DNA from: Actinomycetota bacterium | Lineage (GTDB): Bacteria; Actinomycetota; Geothermincolia; Geothermincolales; RBG-13-55-18 | DNA length: 64,000 bases | Reading direction: 5' to 3' | NCBI GenBank assembly: GCA_030019255.1 | Contig: JASEFK010000006.1 | Location: forward strand, 154,553-218,552 | Shown here: positions 6,604-22,632 of the stretch, one piece after another | Layout of the letters: every line of letters starts with the position of its first letter | How positions within the stretch are numbered: the stretch's first letter is position 1 | Program-made: the position numbers and the translations under genes | The notes under the pieces: model-generated | Seen by the model: only the letters and a program-made list of their open reading frames with translations | Database searches by the model: none | Told to the model about the DNA's origin: nothing

Positions 6604-6844
6604 CTGAGCTGGTCGGTGGTGCGGCTGCGCACGGCGAGAAGGGTCAGGGGGGCGGGTTGGGAACGGGAATTTGCCGCTCCCTGGGAAATGAACCGTAAGA
6701 GCAGGATACAAGGATGCGGGAATTTATAATCTTTATGTCGGCCGGATGCCATGCTCCTTGCTCCCTGGGCAATCCCAAGGAGACATATCGAGCTTTTAAA
6801 GTTCTACGACCCACGTGCACCACGAGCAGGGAAAGGGGGATGAG

Positions 6845-8608
6845 ATGACCGAGGACCTGGACCGGATAAGCGAGGCGCGCCGTGCCTGGGAGGAGGGGCC
6901 CCTGGCCAAGGCCCTCCAGAGGTTCCCCTACCTGAACAAGGACAGCTGCCGCTTCTACACTCCCCTGGACATCGAGCCCTTCGACTTTTTGGAGAAGGTC
7001 GGCTTCCCGGGCACCTACCCCTTCACCGCCGGCACCTTCCCCATCGAGCCCATGGCCGGCCTGGCCCGCCTGGCCTCCCTGGCCGGGGGAAAGGGGGAGA
7101 TACCCGGGGCCGGTGGCCAGACCCGCGCCGCCATCTACTCCGGGTACGGCACCCCGGAGGACACCCGGGACTACTACAGGGGCCTTATCGAGCAGGGGGG
7201 ACGGGGAGGTCCCAACCTGGCCTTCGACCTCCCCACCCAGTGCGGCTACGACTCCGACCATCCCCTGGCCGAGGGGGAGGTGGGCAAGGTGGGGGTGTGC
7301 GTGGACACCCTGGCCGACTTCGAAATCATCTACGAACCCTACCGAGGGGACCTCGACCTGGACCGCATCGCCTCCAACTTCACCATCAACGCCCCGGCCA
7401 ACGTGATCATCGCCATGTACGCCGCCCTGGCCGAGAAGCGGGGCATACCCCTGGAAAAGTTGCGGGCCACCCCCCAGAACGACATCCTTAAGGAGTACAT
7501 CGCCCGGGGGACCTATATCTTTCCCCCGCGGCACGCCCTGCGCATGTTCCGGGACAGCCTGGTGTTCATCACCCGCCACATGCCCAACGTGAACATCACC
7601 AGCATCGGCGGCTACCACATCCGGGAGGCCGGGGCCACCCGGGAACAGGACCTGGCCTTCTCCATGGCCATCGCCATCGAGTACCTCAGGGTGGGGGTGG
7701 ATGCAGGCCTCCAGGTGGACGAATTCGCCCCCCGCTTCACCTTCAATGCCTTCGGAGGCTCCATGGAGATGCTCAAGGAGATCGCCTTCCAGCGGGCGGC
7801 GAGGCGCATGTACGCCAGGATACTGAAGGAGCGTTTCGGGGCCCGGGACGAGCGGAGCATGCGCATCCGCCAGGCCCTGGGGGCTCACATCGGGCCCTCC
7901 TCCACCACCCTACAGCGCCCTCTGAACAACCTCACCCGGGCGGTCATCGGGGCGGTGGCCAGCGCCCTCTCCGGCGGCCGGCCCCTCCCCTTCCCTCCCT
8001 ACGACGAGCCCCTAGGCCTGGGGTGGAGCCTGGAGGCCCTCCAGCTGGCCCAGGACGCGGGAAGGATCATCGCCTGCGAGGCGCGGCTCCTCGAGTATGC
8101 CGATCCCTTCGCCGGCTCCTACTGCATGGAGTCCCTCACCGACGAGATCGAGAGCGCCGCCTGGGAGGAGCTGGAGAAGATAGAGAAGATGGGCGGGGCG
8201 GTGGCGGCCATCGAGAACGGCTACATGCAGAGGGAGATATCCCGCAGCGCCTACGAGCGCCAGCGGGCCATGGAGCGGGGGGAGAGGCTGGTGGTGGGGG
8301 TGAACTGCTTCACCGGGGAGCACGAGCTGGAGGTGACCACCAACCGGCTGGTCCCCAACCCCTACGACCCCGAGAGGAGGGAACGGGCGGAGGAGAGGCA
8401 GAAGGCCCGCCTTTCGGAGATCAAAAGGTCCCGGGACAACCGGGAGGTGGCCCGGCTCCTCCGGGAACTGGAGGCCCTGGCCAAGAGGGAGGAGGAGAAC
8501 CTCATCCCTCACCTCATCCAGTGCGTCAAGGCCTACGTGACCGAGGGGGAGATATGCGAGGTGCTGCGGGGAGTCTTCGGGGAGTACCAGGCGGTCTCCC
8601 CCTTCTGA
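6845..8608 (+). CDS. divergent acyl-CoA mutase large (substrate-binding TIM-barrel) subunit, methylmalonyl-CoA-mutase family, lacking a fused B12 domain
   Basis: 587 aa. The first half ...YTPLDIEPFDFLEKVGFPGTYPFTAGTFP...AFDLPTQCGYDSDHP... and the C-terminal half with the acidic/Arg-rich coiled tail (LIPHLIQCVKAYVTEGEICEVLRGVFGEYQAV) match the MCM alpha / IcmA architecture. The canonical FTRG(P/V)Y-P-MY motif is replaced by FTAGTFPIEPM. AAAGGGGGA RBS 4 nt before ATG 6845. The B12 domain is encoded separately at 10937. Confidence 0.75.
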   Translation: MTEDLDRISEARRAWEEGPLAKALQRFPYLNKDSCRFYTPLDIEPFDFLEKVGFPGTYPFTAGTFPIEPMAGLARLASLAGGKGEIPGAGGQTRAAIYSGYGTPEDTRDYYRGLIEQGGRGGPNLAFDLPTQCGYDSDHPLAEGEVGKVGVCVDTLADFEIIYEPYRGDLDLDRIASNFTINAPANVIIAMYAALAEKRGIPLEKLRATPQNDILKEYIARGTYIFPPRHALRMFRDSLVFITRHMPNVNITSIGGYHIREAGATREQDLAFSMAIAIEYLRVGVDAGLQVDEFAPRFTFNAFGGSMEMLKEIAFQRAARRMYARILKERFGARDERSMRIRQALGAHIGPSSTTLQRPLNNLTRAVIGAVASALSGGRPLPFPPYDEPLGLGWSLEALQLAQDAGRIIACEARLLEYADPFAGSYCMESLTDEIESAAWEELEKIEKMGGAVAAIENGYMQREISRSAYERQRAMERGERLVVGVNCFTGEHELEVTTNRLVPNPYDPERRERAEERQKARLSEIKRSRDNREVARLLRELEALAKREEENLIPHLIQCVKAYVTEGEICEVLRGVFGEYQAVSPF

Positions 8609-8612
8609 TTGC

Positions 8613-8638
8613 GGCGGAAGGGGGGGCGGCCTTCCGCC
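8613..8638 (+). terminator. GC-rich hairpin (9-bp stem GGCGGAAGG/CCTTCCGCC, 8-nt loop) 5 nt after the mutase large-subunit stop, with no U-tract
   Basis: Read directly: 8613-8621 GGCGGAAGG, loop gggggcgg, 8630-8638 CCTTCCGCC. It sits between the mutase large subunit and the radical-SAM gene. Confidence 0.35.
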
Positions 8639-8740
8639 CGGAGGGCCCGGGCGGGGCGGGCGTCCCGCGGACGGGTGCGCGGAGTTCGCGACCCGGGCGC
8701 CGTGCGGACCCCGGACCGGCATCCGGAGGTGGGGGCGGAG

Positions 8741-10840
8741 ATGGACGAAGGGCAACCCTTGCCGGTAACCGAGAGGGCAAGTCCCGGACCTGAAACGGCG
8801 AAGCCAGCGGAGGAGGGCGCGCTCTTCCGCTACCCCCTGCACCCCCCGGCGGAACCGCGGACCGGCGATCCCCCCCTGGTGGAGTTCACCCGAGGCCTGC
8901 TGCGCGACCTCCTCTCCATCCTCCGCCTCCGGAGCGAAGGAAGGGAGGTGGAGGTGGAGGGGTTCCGCTTCCTGGGCCCGGATAAGGCGGTGCATTCCAT
9001 CCATGTCCCGCCCCGCGAGGGAGCGGAGGAACTCGAAGATTCCGGGATGGCCGGCCCATCCGCGCCCCGTCCTCCCCTCCCCGGATGCCGGGGGGAACAC
9101 CCGGAAGGAAAGGGAGACCTGGGGGCCGGCTCCGATGCAGTCCCCAGCCCGGGGAAGGGGCGATTCCCTCCCGGCGCGGTAAAAGGACTTTTGGCAAGGA
9201 AAGAGATCTCAGAGGCACCGGTCCGGGAAGGGATCCAGGGCCTCCCGCCCTTCCTCAACCGGGAGAACGCCGCCCTCTACGAGCCCCGGTTGGAGTTTTT
9301 GGCCCGGCTGCTGGAGAACCTGCTCTCCCTGGTGCAGCTGGAGGCCGGAGGTCGGCCGGTGGAGGTGGACGGATTCCGCCTGCGCCGCCTCTCCGACTGG
9401 GCGGACGCCCCGGTGCCGAGCGCCCAGGACGTAATCCTTCACGCCGCCGACCGCTGCTCTTGCCGTTGCCGGTTCTGCTACCTGCGGGGTTCCCCGCCCA
9501 CCCTGCATTACCATCCCCCCTTCGACCCGGGGGACGACTGGAGGAGGCTGGAGGCCAGGATTCGTCACTACCGCCCCCGGGCGCGGCGGGGGCTCTTCCC
9601 CACCTTCGGTGGCCCGCGGGAGCCGTTCGCTCATCCACAAATTCTCCCCTTGCTCCGATCCCTCCGCGAGACCACCGATGAACCCTTGCGCCTCTCCACC
9701 AACGGATGCGCTCTAAGTCCCGATCTCATAAGCGAACTGGCGAAGCTGGCCCCCCTCTTTCTGGACCTCTCCCTCAACAGCTCCGACCCCGCCCGGCGCT
9801 CCTTCCTCATGGGTGACCCCGAGCCGGGGAGGGCCATCTCCTCCCTGCCCCGCCTGGCGGAGGCGGGCATCCCCTTCGCCGTGACCGTGGTGGCCTGGCC
9901 GGAGCCCTCCCTGGAGGAGATGCTGGAGGACCTGGGAAGAACCTGCCTGTACGCCGCGGGTTGCGGGGCCCGCATGGTACAGGTCAACCTGCCGGGTTAC
10001 TCCCGGTTCTTCTCCCCGCGACCCCTCTTCGATACCGACGAGGTGTGGGGAGCCGTGGTGCGGCGGGTGCGGGAACTGCGCCAGGACATCCCCTGCCCGG
10101 TGGTGGTGAGCCCCGCCCTCTACGAGGAAAACCTCGTCCGGGAACGGAAGAACCTTGCGGAGGTGATAGGGGTGGTGCCCAACTCCCCGGCCGCCTCCTG
10201 GGGGCTTGAGCCGGGAGACGTCATCCTCCGCCTGAACGGGATCAACGTGTTTAACCGCCCCCAGGCCCGCGACCTGCTCACCCTTTTGCAGGAGAGCGGG
10301 AAGGGGAGGATGTCCATCCTGGTCGACCGGGGGGGTAAGAGGGTGGAGCTGGAGGGGGAAAGAAGCCGGTGCCGCTACCCCTTCGATTTTCATACCGGGA
10401 CCCACCTGGGGGTGGTGTTCATGGGGAGCGGTCTGCGCCTCTCCTACCTGCGGGACCTGGAGGACCTCATCCGCTCCTCTGGGGCGCGCCGGGTGCTCTT
10501 TCTCACCTCCCGGCTGGTCCGCCCCACCCTCGAACAGATGCTGCGCGAACGCCCGCTGAGCCTCCCGGAGGGCGTGGAGCTGCACTTGAGCGTGCCGGAG
10601 AACCGCTTCTTCGGGGGAAACATCATGCTCGGCGATCTTTTGGTGGTGCAGGACTTCATCGATCACCTCCGGGAGTGGAGGGAGAGGAAGGGGTTTGCGC
10701 CCCACCTGGTGGTCATACCCTCCTCGCCCTTCCGCCTCAGCGGCTGGGGGAGGGACCTGACCGGTCGGGTGTATCTGGACATCGCCCGGGAGACCGGGAT
10801 GCGGGTGGAACTCCTGGAATGCGAGGCGGTCATGGACTGA
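8741..10840 (+). CDS. radical SAM enzyme with internal PDZ domain (DUF512-like radical-SAM/PDZ family), inserted between the mutase subunits
   Basis: CxxxCxxC radical-SAM cluster motif C-SCR-C-RF-C at about 9455-9478 (HAADRCSCRCRFCYLRG). PDZ-like segment EVIGVVPNSPAASWGLEPGDVILRLNGINVFNRPQARDLLTLLQESGKGRMSILVDRGGKRV (about 10150-10330). GGAGGTG RBS 9 nt before ATG 8741. The listed ORF start 8609 (TTG) would add a 44-codon Arg/Gly-rich extension overlapping the hairpin, which is probably not translated. Confidence 0.75.
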   Translation: MDEGQPLPVTERASPGPETAKPAEEGALFRYPLHPPAEPRTGDPPLVEFTRGLLRDLLSILRLRSEGREVEVEGFRFLGPDKAVHSIHVPPREGAEELEDSGMAGPSAPRPPLPGCRGEHPEGKGDLGAGSDAVPSPGKGRFPPGAVKGLLARKEISEAPVREGIQGLPPFLNRENAALYEPRLEFLARLLENLLSLVQLEAGGRPVEVDGFRLRRLSDWADAPVPSAQDVILHAADRCSCRCRFCYLRGSPPTLHYHPPFDPGDDWRRLEARIRHYRPRARRGLFPTFGGPREPFAHPQILPLLRSLRETTDEPLRLSTNGCALSPDLISELAKLAPLFLDLSLNSSDPARRSFLMGDPEPGRAISSLPRLAEAGIPFAVTVVAWPEPSLEEMLEDLGRTCLYAAGCGARMVQVNLPGYSRFFSPRPLFDTDEVWGAVVRRVRELRQDIPCPVVVSPALYEENLVRERKNLAEVIGVVPNSPAASWGLEPGDVILRLNGINVFNRPQARDLLTLLQESGKGRMSILVDRGGKRVELEGERSRCRYPFDFHTGTHLGVVFMGSGLRLSYLRDLEDLIRSSGARRVLFLTSRLVRPTLEQMLRERPLSLPEGVELHLSVPENRFFGGNIMLGDLLVVQDFIDHLREWRERKGFAPHLVVIPSSPFRLSGWGRDLTGRVYLDIARETGMRVELLECEAVMD

Positions 10841-10936
10841 GGGGAAGGTGGCCATCCGGAAGACCGAAAGGGATGGGACTAGGTGATGGACAGAGCGTCA
10901 GGAGCGCGAAAAGGTGAAGGACAAGGGAGGCAGGAA

Positions 10937-11353
10937 ATGGCATCGAAGACGGAGGGCAAGGTCATCCGGGTACTTATCGCCAAGCCCGGTCTTGACGGGC
11001 ACGACCAGGGAGCCAAGGTCATCGCCTACGGCCTCAAGGACGAGGGGTTCGAGGTCATCTACACCGGCCTGAGGCGCACCCCGGAGGAGATCGTCAACGC
11101 GGCCGTGGACGAGGACGTGGACGTCATCGGCCTCTCCATCCTCTCCGGGGCTCACCTGAGCATTGCGCGGCGTGTCATGTCCCTTCTCCGGGAAAAGGGC
11201 GTGGAGGACAAGATGGTCCTGGTGGGAGGCATCATCCCTCCCGAGGACATCCCCAAGCTCAAGGAGATGGGCGTGGCCGAGGTCTTCGTCTCCGGGACCT
11301 ATATCTCCCAGGTGGCGGAATTCATCCGCTCCCGGTTGGGTGTCTCTTCCTGA
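10937..11353 (+). CDS. cobalamin-binding small subunit of an acyl-CoA mutase (B12-binding Rossmann domain)
   Basis: [73 protein letters not shown]... contains the DxHxxG B12 lower-ligand motif (LDGHDQG) and the MCM small-subunit fold. AGGGAGG RBS before ATG 10937. Confidence 0.9.
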
Positions 11354-16091: not shown

Positions 16092-16263
16092 GGGCCTTTC
16101 TCCCGCGGACTTGACCTCCAGTGGAGCAACCTGAACGAGACCCGGAAGGCTCGTTCCCCTAACCGCTCGTCGCTTACGGAGATGACCCGAGACGGCGCAT
16201 GGCAGCGGAATGCCGAGCCGGGAAAGGCAGTTGAAGGATTTCAAAAAACCCCTTGAAAAATAT

Positions 16264-16279
16264 GTTCACTTTTACTAAA
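16264..16279. promoter_or_regulatory. 16-nt motif GTTCACTTTTACTAAA in the AT-rich island upstream of the GRE operon
   Basis: Identical to the reverse complement of 6588-6603, and 15/16 identical to 24126-24141. Confidence 0.5.
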
Positions 16280-16333
16280 ATAAGCCTCAAGATGATTGCT
16301 GTTATTAAGGCATAATAAGAAATATTAATAATT

Positions 16334-16349
16334 TATTACTATAGTAATA
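16334..16349. promoter_or_regulatory. perfect 16-bp palindrome TATTACTATAGTAATA (candidate operator) upstream of the GRE operon
   Basis: Read directly. It is its own reverse complement. It lies in the 16240-16400 AT-rich island, about 400 nt upstream of the GRE start. Confidence 0.45.
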
Positions 16350-16748
16350 GTGTAAATTGCTTACTTAAACGCTTTTGAATTTTGACTAACTAGGATTCGG
16401 AAAAACGTCTGTACCACCGCCCGATTATTCCGCAGCAGGATTCGCCCCACGTGATAAGCAGCCATCGAGGGGGTGAGCTTTCCCCGTTTGAGGAACCGTG
16501 AAAGGCGAATCGGCCGATGAGCTCCGCAGGAGCGTGAAAGAGAAGGTGCGCGGTTTTCGTCTCAAATAGGGGGCTCGTGAATGGAAAGGCGTGCCATTCG
16601 CGAGGGCAACGGGCACGGACATCCGGCCGGAGAGGCTGTCGGGAAGGGAGGGATGAAAACCCGAAAGGAAAGCAGTGGGATTTTCTCGGTTTGAAGGAAA
16701 GAACGTTGCTTTCACAAGCGGGGGGCAACCGGAAGAAGAAGGGGGTAG

Positions 16749-19241
16749 ATGATGTCGGCGGTTGAGATGCGAACCATCGAGGAGATCGAAAAGAGCGGTC
16801 AGTGGTGGTGGTGGGCGGAACACAAGAGGTCGAAACGCCTGGATTACCTGCGCAAGGCGGTATGGAAAAAGGGGGCCAAGGGCTCCGGTTACCAGCCGGG
16901 AGTGAAGGTGGACCTGGAGAGGGCCGTCCTCTTCACCGAGGCCTTCAAGGCCAACGAGCACGACTCCCTGCGCATGCGCTATGCCAAGGCTCTGGCCAAC
17001 GTGTTCGACAACATCACCATCTTTATCCAGGACCACGCCCAGATCATGGGCTACCTGGGTTCCCGGCCCCACACCATCGTGTGGCACCCGGAGATCCTCT
17101 TTCTGCTCAACGAGGACCTGTATAACGACCGCACGGTCATACCTGAGCCTGTGGATGAGAACCTGAAGCTCATCCGGGAGCTCTGCGACTACTGGAACCC
17201 CCAGACGGCGGGGGCCAAGGTCTTCAACCTGGTCCCACCGGAGGAGATCGTCAAGCTCCTAACCGGGGTTATCGGTTGGGGGCTTCCCATCTCCCGCATC
17301 GGCTACGCCACCAAGCAGTGGGACTACATGTTCCGCTTGGGTCTGGAAGGCATCATAGCTGAAATAGACGAGCGTATTAAGGAGGCCGAGGAACGCATTT
17401 ACAACAAGGTGCCCGATCCCGAGGACCTCCCCTACTACGAGAAGCTTGACGTCTGGAAGTCCATGAAGGTGGTGCTGGAGGCGGTCATCCGCTGGGCACG
17501 CCGCTACAGCCGCCTGGCCAGGATCATCGCCGAGCACTTCGAGACCGACCCCCAGCGCAAAGAGGAGCTCCTGCGCATCGCCGAGGTCTGCTGGAAAGTG
17601 CCAGCCAAGCCCCCGGAGCACCTGCACGAGTCCCTGCAGTTCGACCATTTCATCCAGATTGCCTGCCGCTACGAGGCCTGCGAGGGCGCCTGGCCGGCCC
17701 GCCCCGATTACTGGCACGGTCCCTTCTACGACAAGGACGTCAACCGGGACAAGATCCTTACCCGGGAGGAGGCCCTGGATCTCACCGGAGAGTTCCTCAT
17801 CCGCTGCTACGAGGTGGGATGGTTCTGGTTGATGCTGGCCCGCGACACCCTGCAGGGCATCACCGGGACCTGGGTATGGACAATCGGCGGGGTTAACGAG
17901 GACGGGACCGACGCCTGTAACGACATGACCGACTGCCTGCTGGAAGCGGCCCGCCTGGTACGGGTGGCCAATCCCACCTTCGCCTTCCGTTACCATCCCA
18001 ACGTGAGGATGCAGACCCTGCGCCAGGTCTTCGAGTGCATCCGGCAGGGATTGGGATATCCTTCCATGCGCAACGATCCCATCCTCATCACCAACGCCAT
18101 GCATTGGCACAGGCATCCGTTGCGGGAGGCGCGGCGCTGGGTGCACCAGGCCTGCATGTCCCCCTGCCCGGATACCAAACTGGGATGCCAGCCCTTCCGC
18201 ATGGCCAACGCCACCATCATCGCCGCCAAGGCCATCGAGTATGCCCTATTCGACGGGTACGACAACGTGCTCCAGATGCAGTTCGGACCCCATACCGGGG
18301 ATGCCACAAAGTTCGAGACCTTCGAGGAGCTCTACCAGGCTTGGTACACGCAGATCAAATGGATGATGGACACCCTGGTAAAACTGACTAACGGCGGCCG
18401 CTTCATGGCCCAGTTCCTGGACCCCCGCCCCCTGCTCTCCGGACTCTACGAGCGCTGCGTGGAGCTGGGCGTGGACTCCTCCCATCCCTCGGAGCGCGGC
18501 AATTCCTGGATTACCTTCTTCGCCTGGATGGAGACCGGGGACAGCCTGGCCGCGGTGAAGAAGCTGGTTTTCGACGAGAAGAAGTACACCATGGCCCAGC
18601 TCATCGAGGCTCTCAAGGCCAACTGGGAGGGCTACGAGGAGATGCGCATGGACTTCGTGCGCGCTCCCAAGTGGGGCAACGACGACGACTACGTGGACCA
18701 GATCCACATCCGCTGCCACCGCGACGTGGCCAGGCACTCCTGGGAAATAATGGATCCCACCGGGAATCCCTGGCCTCCGCTGCCGGAGAACATCGCCGCC
18801 TACGTGACCAACGCCACCAAGGTTTGGGCGCTGCCCAACGGGAGGAGGCTTGGCGACACCCTCTACGACGGCGGGTGCTCCCCCGGGGCGGGGCTGGACA
18901 AGAAAGGTCCCACCGCCGTCCTGCGCTCGGTGGCCAAGATCGACCACATCGGGGACGTGCGAGCCACCCTGCTCAACCAGCGCCTGTCCCCCCAGCAGCT
19001 GGCCGGCGAGAAGGGCTTCCACATCTGGCACTCCTACATCAAGACCTGGGCCGAACTGGGTATCGACCACGTGCAGTTCAACATGGTGGACAACGAAACC
19101 CTGAAGGCGGCCCAGAGGGAACCGGAGAAGTATCCCGAGCTCATCGTGCGCATCGCCGGTTACAGCGCCCATTTCGTGGACCTGAACAAGAAGACCCAGG
19201 ACACCATCATCGCCCGCAACGTGCAGGAACTGGGCGTATGA
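16749..19241 (+). CDS. glycyl radical enzyme, pyruvate formate-lyase family; X-succinate-synthase-like (fumarate-adding, AssA/BssA-type) catalytic subunit, inferred
   Basis: 830 aa. C-terminal glycyl-radical motif RIAGYSAHFVDLNKKTQDTIIARNV (about 19155). Candidate thiyl Cys loop QACMSPCPDTKLG (about 18151-18165). The fumarate-adding subtype is inferred from context: two small 4-Cys subunits, ferredoxin-domain activases, and adjacent CoA-ligase, mutase and carboxylase genes. Confidence 0.8.
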   Translation: MMSAVEMRTIEEIEKSGQWWWWAEHKRSKRLDYLRKAVWKKGAKGSGYQPGVKVDLERAVLFTEAFKANEHDSLRMRYAKALANVFDNITIFIQDHAQIMGYLGSRPHTIVWHPEILFLLNEDLYNDRTVIPEPVDENLKLIRELCDYWNPQTAGAKVFNLVPPEEIVKLLTGVIGWGLPISRIGYATKQWDYMFRLGLEGIIAEIDERIKEAEERIYNKVPDPEDLPYYEKLDVWKSMKVVLEAVIRWARRYSRLARIIAEHFETDPQRKEELLRIAEVCWKVPAKPPEHLHESLQFDHFIQIACRYEACEGAWPARPDYWHGPFYDKDVNRDKILTREEALDLTGEFLIRCYEVGWFWLMLARDTLQGITGTWVWTIGGVNEDGTDACNDMTDCLLEAARLVRVANPTFAFRYHPNVRMQTLRQVFECIRQGLGYPSMRNDPILITNAMHWHRHPLREARRWVHQACMSPCPDTKLGCQPFRMANATIIAAKAIEYALFDGYDNVLQMQFGPHTGDATKFETFEELYQAWYTQIKWMMDTLVKLTNGGRFMAQFLDPRPLLSGLYERCVELGVDSSHPSERGNSWITFFAWMETGDSLAAVKKLVFDEKKYTMAQLIEALKANWEGYEEMRMDFVRAPKWGNDDDYVDQIHIRCHRDVARHSWEIMDPTGNPWPPLPENIAAYVTNATKVWALPNGRRLGDTLYDGGCSPGAGLDKKGPTAVLRSVAKIDHIGDVRATLLNQRLSPQQLAGEKGFHIWHSYIKTWAELGIDHVQFNMVDNETLKAAQREPEKYPELIVRIAGYSAHFVDLNKKTQDTIIARNVQELGV

Positions 19242-19623: not shown

Positions 19624-19851
19624 ATGGTCACCTGTTCCAGGTGCGGAAGGTCCGGCTCTTTAGCCGAGTTCGCCTACGTGGGGCAGGCCGTGGAGGTGGG
19701 ACCCGTTTCCCTGAGGCGGTGCCCTGCCTGCGGTGAACTCCTGGTCGTGGACGAACTGGAGCTGGAACGGGATGGATCATCATCTCCCGGTCCCTGGGGA
19801 CTGAGCGACATCTGGGGTAGAAAATTTACCTGTAAGAACGGGGAGGTGTGA
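19624..19851 (+). CDS. zinc-ribbon mini-protein, paralog 1 (CxxCG...EF-Y...CPxCG family)
   Basis: 75 aa: MVTCSRCGRSGSLAEFAYVGQAVEVGPVSLRRCPACGELLVVDELE... with two CxxC knuckles. It shares the pattern TC-x-RCG-xxG-x2-AEF-x-[YH]-...-R-x-CP-x-CG with the ORFs at 19855 and 22633. Confidence 0.55.
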   Translation: MVTCSRCGRSGSLAEFAYVGQAVEVGPVSLRRCPACGELLVVDELELERDGSSSPGPWGLSDIWGRKFTCKNGEV

Positions 19852-19854
19852 ACT

Positions 19855-20034
19855 GTGGTCAAGTGCGACAACTGCGGATACCAAGGGGTGAAGTCGGAGT
19901 TCCGTTACCTCTACAACACCACCCTGGACGCGGAGACAGCATACCGCGAATGTCCGCAATGCTACGCCTGGGTGGTGGTCAACGAGCTGCAGGAGGAAAA
20001 GGCCGAAAAGGAGCTCCAGAAGGGAAAAGCCTGA
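19855..20034 (+). CDS. zinc-ribbon mini-protein, paralog 2 (absent from the ORF track; 59 aa, GTG start)
   Basis: GTG at 19855, 4 nt after the stop of paralog 1. Translation VVKCDNCGYQGVKSEFRYLYNTTLDAETAYRECPQCYAWVVVNELQEEKAEKELQKGKA*. It has the same CxxCG...EF-Y...CPxC pattern. The alternate-frame ORF 19848..20234 is low-complexity. Confidence 0.45.
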   Translation: MVKCDNCGYQGVKSEFRYLYNTTLDAETAYRECPQCYAWVVVNELQEEKAEKELQKGKA

Positions 20035-20118
20035 TTCCCCCGTGGGAGTTCACGCTTTTTCCTGTGACGCTTTCCGGCTTCCCCGGCGTGTCGAGAGAAA
20101 CGGAAAAGGAGTCCTTTC

Positions 20119-22294: not shown

Positions 22295-22632
22295 GGGCGC
22301 GCAACGAACGGCGGGGGTCTTGCAACCCGTGGCCCGCTCCCGGGAACCTCGACGCATGCGTTGGTGACACGATAGTTGGCGGGTGGAAGAGGGTAACAAC
22401 GCTGCCTTGCGCCATCCCGCAAGGTATTGACCGGTATGTTCTTGCGTAGTAACGTCCGCCGCCGCAAGAGCCTCCCGGCCTGGATGTAATGCACAAGTTC
22501 AGCTCCGGCGGCGGTAAGCAAGAATCGGTCCGCGAACGCAAGGGGGGAGACGGGTTGACCCAGCTTGATCCACGCGAAAGGAAAAATGGAACATACCGGG
22601 TCGTGTAACGGCAAATGACAAGGAGAAAAGCC

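Follow-up and report, generated by a model that had tools for sequence, protein, structure and literature searches.

We have studied a window of 64,000 nt (contig JASEFK010000006.1 of assembly GCA_030019255.1, positions 154,553–218,552 of the forward strand), which contains the canonical alkylsuccinate synthase operon of a Candidatus Solincola (Actinomycetota) genome. Alkylsuccinate synthases are glycyl radical enzymes (GREs) which add alkanes to fumarate and enable anaerobic bacteria to attack them. The genes follow in the order AssA, MasB, Z1, Z2, AE1, AE2, MasC and Z3 (Table 1), and related loci show the same arrangement. We will be concerned mainly with Z1, Z2 and Z3, three small proteins which an earlier sequence-only reading of the window had described as zinc ribbons without a counterpart in the known GRE systems. 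They do form a family, but it is not a new kind of protein: as judged by homology, Z1, Z2 and Z3 are all paralogous to MasE, which is known as the delta subunit of (1-methylalkyl)succinate synthase (MASS). The gene masE was named in 2008 in the mas operon of strain HxN1 and the structure of its product was solved in 2025. It is rubredoxin-like and binds one Fe via Cys3, Cys6, Cys32 and Cys35 (PMC12358834; PDB 9o8u_D).

The identity of the operon is clear from its catalytic subunit. AssA matches MasD (9o8u_A) with E = 0 and 1128 bits, while the match with the alpha subunit of benzylsuccinate synthase (BSS; 4pkc_A) is far lower (1.8e-166). Pfam finds in it the PFL-like and Gly_radical domains. 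It has a RIAGY glycyl motif from residue 801 and the cysteine of an ACMSP motif at 469. By these features it is the catalytic GRE of the X-succinate synthase (XSS) clade, with its glycyl motif and a single catalytic Cys. The nearest AssA locus is found in an Actinomycetota metagenome-assembled genome (MAG) with 98% identity; the next ones are in Candidatus Solincola and Geothermincola MAGs.

The open reading frames (ORFs) of Z1, Z2 and Z3 lie where the sequence-only reading had placed them, with the translations which it described. Their homology is confirmed by pairwise BLASTP (E = 1e-11 for Z1/Z2, 6e-13 for Z2/Z3 and 2e-13 for Z1/Z3), with 37–40% identity over a ribbon of about 48 residues. 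They have a common layout, in which a first knuckle (CxxCG) and an EF motif are followed, after exactly 11 residues, by a second knuckle R-x-CP-x-C. This is the knuckle/EF/knuckle pattern of the signature proposed before, with the spacer in front of (A/S)EF corrected from x3 to x2 and the one between the knuckles, given as x9–11, fixed at 11 in all three proteins. Z1 and Z2 had been said to overlap; in fact three bases lie between the stop codon of Z1 (19849–19851) and the GTG of Z2 (19855). When compared with orthologues in related MAGs, dN/dS is 0.03–0.13 for Z2, 0.08–0.25 for Z3 and 0.12–0.53 for Z1: all three genes are coding and under purifying selection. Chance ORFs or non-coding sequence are ruled out by these values and by conservation across phyla. 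Ribosome-binding sites are found for Z1 (GGAG), Z3 (AAGGAG) and Z2, where the Shine-Dalgarno sequence GGGAGG is conserved 6–9 nt 5' of the start; this start is GTG or ATG in the same position in 11 orthologues. NCBI already lists the exact sequences under the name 'hypothetical protein [Candidatus Solincola sp.]' (Z1, MDI6874069.1; Z2 with its GTG start, MDI6874070.1; Z3, P0001). A hidden Markov model (HMM) of the family found no copy beyond these three in the 64-kb window.

Table 1. Features of the alkylsuccinate synthase operon in the window, and Z3-type genes with an in-frame TGA in other loci
Feature	Position	Strand	Evidence
Promoter-like site TTGAAA-17-TAAAAT	16253..16281	+	Consensus scan only, 10/12 matches; AT-rich gap 5' of assA
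AssA/MasD, catalytic alpha subunit, 830 aa	16749..19241	+	Match with PDB 9o8u_A, MasD
MasB-like beta subunit, 99 aa	19306..19605	+	PDB 9o8u_B 'MasB protein', E 9e-12; NCBI: hypothetical
Z1, MasE-like type C, ribbon and PWG...WGRKF tail, 75 aa	19624..19851	+	phmmer with 9o8u_D, E 5.2e-6
Z2, MasE-like type B, tail-less, 59 aa, GTG start	19855..20034	+	phmmer with 9o8u_D, E 2.1e-10
Terminator-like hairpin and T-run directly 3' of Z2	20033..20054	+	Consensus scan
Activase AE1, 312 aa	20119..21057	+	TIGR02494 GRE-activating protein, 3.7e-103; radical SAM and two ferredoxin motifs
Activase AE2, 309 aa	21067..21996	+	TIGR02494, 1.6e-99; 44% identity to AE1
MasC/BssC-like gamma subunit, 51 aa	22139..22294	+	Pfam PF08201 BssC_TutF, 6.6e-14
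Z3, MasE-like type D, ribbon, Cys25-Cys26 loop and three-helix bundle, 115 aa	22633..22980	+	phmmer with 9o8u_D, E 1.3e-3
TGA-form Z3-type genes	L027:11629-11973; L061:12019-12351; L024:12839-13171; L054:9579-9902; metagenome L084-L133 set		In-frame TGA

The relationship with MasE is found in several ways. A phmmer search detects subunit MasE (9o8u_D) with each of the three proteins, with the lowest E value for Z2 and the highest for Z3 (Table 1). Profile comparison with MasE proper by hhalign gives 1.4e-22 for the type of Z2 and 1.9e-16 for the type of Z1, with the WG of the two tails aligned. The four cysteines at the ligand positions (C4, C7, C33 and C36 in Z1 and Z2; C5, C8, C34 and C37 in Z3) align column for column with those of MasE in the pattern CX2C...CX2C. 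The AlphaFold2 (AF2) model of Z3 has a predicted local distance difference test (pLDDT) score of 81 and shows a five-strand ribbon followed by three helices. When it is compared with 9o8u_D, Foldseek reports a probability of 0.97 and a root mean square deviation of 2.3 Å over 40 columns with 35% identity. The two-knuckle rubredoxin-like fold that had been suggested is thus the predicted one for Z3, and homology would extend it to Z1 and Z2. The helical tail of Z3, which had been estimated at about 60 residues, has about 70, with predicted helices in positions 43–69, 72–89 and 92–111. A fold search of the helical part gave S20, MIT domains and designed proteins, all of them generic three-helix bundles, from which we infer no function. 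As to the word 'zinc', the ribbon stands, but the metal modelled in the solved homologue is iron.

No Pfam or NCBIfam model exists for this family, which explains the 'hypothetical' labels. We considered the assignments suggested by the weaker matches of Z1–Z3 (zinc-ribbon, DUF7479, DVU_1557, MqsA-type) and ruled them out, as all are sub-threshold. The same is true of NF041197, with a cut-off of 40 bits: Z1 reaches 12.9 bits (E 0.096), and the read-through proteins of the Z3 type give nothing at E up to 1. In JGI/IMG, proteins that equal Z1 or differ little from it are called 'sarcosine oxidase delta subunit', and those that equal Z2 or differ little from it 'RNA-binding Zn-ribbon protein (DUF1610)'; these labels are probably over-annotation from weak zinc-ribbon matches. 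Such labels, together with the matches to zinc-ribbon families, DUF7479 and MqsA-type fingers, are what would be found if the three proteins were generic nucleic-acid-binding or regulatory zinc ribbons (acting in transcription or translation, or antitoxin-like) that are mere neighbours of a GRE. We find this highly improbable: none of these matches attains its curated cut-off, the homology leads directly to a subunit of a solved enzyme complex, and the position in the operon is kept across phyla. The guess that they might be extra subunits agrees with this homology.

The complex of HxN1 gives an idea of where such proteins may act. Its delta subunit copurifies with the alpha subunit and is placed on it beside beta, at a surface needed for docking of the activase; with its tail, some 20 residues long, it clamps the glycyl radical domain, on which this tail lies (PMC12358834). 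In the window the three proteins differ in this tail. Z1 has a tail in which PWG aligns with PWGKS of MasE, Z2 has no such tail and Z3 has the three-helix bundle instead.

An iterated HMM was run over the 73 AssA loci that were fetched from species genomes, and a tree was calculated from the ribbon domain by itself. Homologues are found overwhelmingly in AssA loci, so that the association with a GRE noted in the window is also found elsewhere. At least one MasE-like ORF is present in 28 of the 73 loci; there are four types, and often two or three are found in the same locus. Type A is MasE proper, with a tail ...GEAPWGKSAGIEGL, present in Deltaproteobacteria and in HxN1. Type B, to which Z2 belongs, is its sister clade: it shares a common FRYLYN core, but it is short and tail-less. 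Z1 is of type C; these proteins form a clade of their own and have a WG...G..F tail, in which WG is aligned with the WG of MasE. Type D, that of Z3, has the ribbon and the helical domain. Actinomycetota loci have C, B and D together, as does one deltaproteobacterial locus (L054), and a Peptococcaceae locus (L055) has C and B before the contig ends. A Desulfatibacillaceae locus has C, A and D; A and D are found in many deltaproteobacterial loci, B and C in those of Dehalococcoidia. The three paralogue lineages are old and recur in several phyla. Among the AssA-like loci with no MasE-like gene there are several without an activase close by, and some in which tandem AssA paralogues are present instead.

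The tailed form is associated with a second activase. If we count the loci with activase genes inside the fetched DNA, the tailed type C protein is present in 11 of the 15 which have both AE1-type and AE2-type activases and in none of the 27 with AE1 only (Fisher p = 3e-7, uncorrected for phylogeny). In four relatives of the window with a single activase (L003, L004, L008 and L047) the ribbon of Z1 is kept, and the tail is lost in every reading frame. This association is a signal of co-inheritance and does not prove that the two interact. It agrees with the published model, according to which the glycyl radical domain is accessible to the activase only if delta moves.

A rival reading is that only one copy is the working delta subunit and that the others are redundant duplicates heading for loss, or serve AssA paralogues elsewhere in the genome. 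Z1 evolves fastest, its tail has decayed in the four genomes just mentioned, many genomes have several AssA paralogues and the enzyme of HxN1 works with a single MasE (PMC12358834). On the other hand, purifying selection acts on all three genes, the old lineages recur together in Actinomycetota, deltaproteobacterial and Peptococcaceae loci, and each of them has its own conserved features (a WG tail, an invariant CC loop, a helical domain). Redundancy is for these reasons quite unlikely.

Z3 belongs to a type with a further peculiarity. In seven genome loci its ORF is seemingly split, and in all of them (7/7) this is due to a single in-frame TGA, always in the column of Cys25 of the window protein. 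The form read with selenocysteine (Sec) compares with the Cys form as UCGP against CCGP in L054 and as G-U-P-A-C-G against G-C-P-A-C-G in L068. We found 50 further loci in metagenomes, using as a query the alignment of the D1 subgroup (A5), as the broad Z3-type alignment (A4) is too diverse. The codon in this column is TGA in 37 of the 50 and TGC or TGT in the other 13; no other codon is present. A 7-bp hairpin with a GUCNGA-type loop starts 8 nt 3' of the TGA. Pairing amounts to 91% in 32 distinct TGA sequences, but to only 57% in the 14 Cys forms, which encode the same peptide G-E-S-D-L-R. Its pair 11–30 covaries (CG 13, GC 9, GU 2), and the observed score was reached by no shuffle. A column restricted to TGA and Cys, together with a hairpin specific for TGA, indicates that the Z3 type is a selenocysteine/cysteine family. 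In Z3 of the window codon 25 is TGC. The protein is thus the Cys form and not itself a selenoprotein; TGA and the hairpin are features of its homologues.

We also considered the TGA forms as truly split genes, coding for a 22-aa peptide and an 80-aa protein. This is ruled out: no stop codon other than TGA occurs, both parts and their reading frame are conserved, close relatives have Cys in the same column and a TGA-specific hairpin follows. In a library of 1.84 billion proteins the Z3 family has only 41 clusters, and several of them are fragments of 78–88 aa which start just after the TGA. Gene callers cut the TGA forms, which are found in Deltaproteobacteria and other groups, in this way; they look like a family of selenoproteins which belongs to alkylsuccinate synthase operons and has escaped annotation. 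Of the 22 metagenome contigs of at least 5 kb with a Z3-type gene, 19 also carry AssA or its small subunits. One Z3-type gene has an activase gene on either side, and here stop and start codons overlap. In 23 actinobacterial homologues of Z3 the residues Cys25, Cys26 and Cys43 are invariant, and residues 24–26 are the only run of three or more residues with pLDDT below 50 in the AF2 model. The Cys-Cys pair stands in a flexible loop which separates the knuckles.

Some metagenome loci are more complex. In L125 (1631–5387), L120 and L124 a pair of MasE-like genes and a pair of activases are followed by two or three consecutive Z3-type genes, at least one of them with TGA. In L127:1998–2261 a second in-frame TGA is found four codons after the first (G*PAC*EAD); this could be explained by a sequencing error, by a pseudogene or by recoding at a second site.

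These features could also be interpreted in terms of electron transfer. The Z proteins might be classical rubredoxin-type electron carriers which reduce the [4Fe-4S] of the activases, one for each activase, with Z3 as a selenol/thiol-coupled input, and they would then not be structural gates. The solved homologue, with its rubredoxin-like fold and single Fe, would suit such a role, and so would Z3-type genes that adjoin activase genes or sit between them, the tailed Z1 type which tracks the second activase, and a Sec/Cys position which implies a chemistry beyond structure. However, the Fe of the MASS delta subunit faces outward and lies 39 Å from the active site, a distance for which its authors consider that electrons are unlikely to pass to that site (PMC12358834); this counts against transfer to alpha, not to the activase. 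Furthermore delta copurifies as a subunit, and Z1–Z3 have no match with Pfam Rubredoxin at E up to 0.1. Z2 gives partial matches to the rubredoxin-like models RUBY_RBDX and Zn_ribbon_LapB, none of them above cut-off. We consider that carriers directed towards the activases are unlikely, although they are a live rival.

The interpretation which we favour, and which we hold to be very probable, is that the complete operon contains three paralogues of MasE with presumably different tasks: a delta-like Z2, a gating Z1 and a chemically active Z3. The role of delta is taken here from PMC12358834 and PMC13450708. By comparison with the solved HxN1 complex, Z2, which has the ribbon nearest to that of MasE, would be a constitutive delta-like ribbon which docks next to MasB. 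Z1 would provide a second gate, placed with its tail on the glycyl radical domain and working with AE2. Z3 may serve the synthase or an activase as a partner with redox activity or with an extra metal site, rather than as a plain structural subunit. We also put forward, tentatively and as a possibility rather than a probable outcome, a more specific proposal: Z3 would be the Cys form of an undescribed Sec/Cys family (ribbon, U/C-C or U-x-x-C loop, three-helix bundle), which would be a regular fifth component of the operon with selenol/thiol or extra-metal chemistry directed at the synthase or its activase, and the tailed Z1 would be the dedicated partner of the second activase.

Several points weigh against this interpretation. 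By sequence alone the match of Z3 with MasE is marginal (1.3e-3). Z2 lacks the tail, which makes most of the contacts of delta with the glycyl radical domain in MASS, and so it cannot act exactly as MasE does. The binding of Z1, Z2 and Z3 to AssA is presumed by analogy with HxN1, and their metal may be Fe or Zn. The co-occurrence of Z1 and AE2 has few independent lineages behind it (Actinomycetota, two or three groups of Deltaproteobacteria and one further group), and Z1 is the least constrained of the three, with dN/dS up to 0.53. Eight loci (L009, L010, L011, L015, L017, L036, L045 and L051) have full 10-kb flanks and no MasE-like gene within them, which means that the delta subunit is not universal. 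A distant relative of the Z3 type, P0043, is not adjacent to a GRE. Finally, Sec can be a metal ligand instead of a redox centre, so that a redox-active Z3 is one reading only.

NCBI names the gamma subunit gene 'benzylsuccinate synthase gamma subunit family protein'. A candidate for MasC upstream of assA (ORF 16577–16765) was rejected, as its translation is arginine-rich nonsense and the gamma subunit is really found downstream (Table 1). The flanking genes code for a methylmalonyl-CoA-mutase-like protein, a B12-binding protein, MmgE/PrpD, a CoA ligase and an enoyl-CoA hydratase, and also for biotin carboxylase/carboxyltransferase, BirA and BioY. They are those of the known downstream alkane pathway and agree with the published Desulfoglaeba (ALDC) cluster. 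A gene for a 743-aa radical SAM and PDZ protein (8609–10840) is found between the mutase-like gene (6815–8608) and the B12-binding gene (10883–11353), an unusual insertion within the mutase gene pair.

A strongly AT-rich stretch at about 16240–16400, which contains the promoter-like site, is followed by an untranslated leader of about 470 nt before assA. The hairpin after Z2 could act as an attenuator, with AssA, MasB, Z1 and Z2 transcribed more strongly than the activases. It is a consensus match only, and we take it as no more than a lead, since such sites are no commoner in the region than in shuffled sequences. The 338-nt gap between MasC and Z3 (22295–22632) has no ORF of note and no Rfam match; its fold is no stabler than that of shuffles (z = 0.85) and we do not propose a structured RNA there. 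A Rfam scan of the whole window gave zero matches.

The MasE/MASS delta family in a canonical operon was known. The layout with three paralogues, the tail-less delta, the link of the tailed Z1 with AE2 and the extended Sec/Cys paralogue are new. A review of GREs from June 2026 reports a rubredoxin-like delta only in MASS and states that its role 'remains to be defined'. We found no published name for the Z1 and Z3 types and no link of selenocysteine with alkylsuccinate synthase in the literature searched; most subscription papers fall outside it, so that this absence is no proof. NCBIfam and the 2026 reviews on selenoproteomes and on GREs do not mention a selenoprotein of the Z3 type. If our proposal is true, selenium would be tied to anaerobic alkane activation, and the delta-like proteins would be a modular gating system instead of a single subunit. 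Several handles are offered for experiments on the installation and protection of the glycyl radical in enzymes which activate alkanes: at least three old types of delta paralogue, a clamping tail which can be separated from the MasE-like ribbon, a tailed paralogue which travels with a second activase and another one with a Sec/Cys site. The practical point is annotation: the family is labelled as hypothetical or mislabelled, and its TGA forms are shortened by gene callers.

We may finally compare these proteins with known systems. The closest is MasE itself (Azoarcus/Aromatoleum sp. HxN1), with the same ribbon, equivalent cysteines and rubredoxin-like fold, also encoded beside MasD and MasB. 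Z2 has its FRYxYN core and Z1 the PWG of its tail. In HxN1 a single protein of 71 aa unites ribbon and tail, whereas three copies are present here: Z2 is shorter and tail-less, Z1 belongs to a separate clade and Z3 has a three-helix bundle in place of the tail and an extra invariant Cys-Cys. The beta subunit of BSS (BssB/TutG) is also a small metal-binding accessory subunit, which contacts the glycyl radical domain and regulates the installation of the radical. It has been proposed that the delta subunit of MASS has taken over this half of the role of BSS beta (PMC12358834). However BSS beta has a HiPIP-like fold (HiPIP, high-potential iron-sulfur protein) with a [4Fe-4S] cluster and no sequence similarity to Z1–Z3; the HiPIP-like subunits are here MasB and MasC.

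Rubredoxins offer an analogy (AlkG, for instance, donates electrons to AlkB, the aerobic alkane hydroxylase): they share an Fe(Cys)4 knuckle fold and an alkane-activating enzyme as a partner. They differ from our proteins in the Pfam model, which does not recognise Z1–Z3, and from MASS in the large distance of its Fe from the active site. The Z3 type also resembles small selenoproteins with Sec/Cys metal or redox motifs, for example the dual-CXXC proteins of NF041197 and the CU/GxUC 2Fe-2S-binding CopZ-like proteins (PMC13188914): it alternates Sec and Cys beside a Cys (UC, UxxC, CU) and has a hairpin after the TGA. It differs from them in that neither NF041197 nor another NCBIfam model matches it significantly, its knuckle cysteines are never Sec, and the family is tied to XSS operons.

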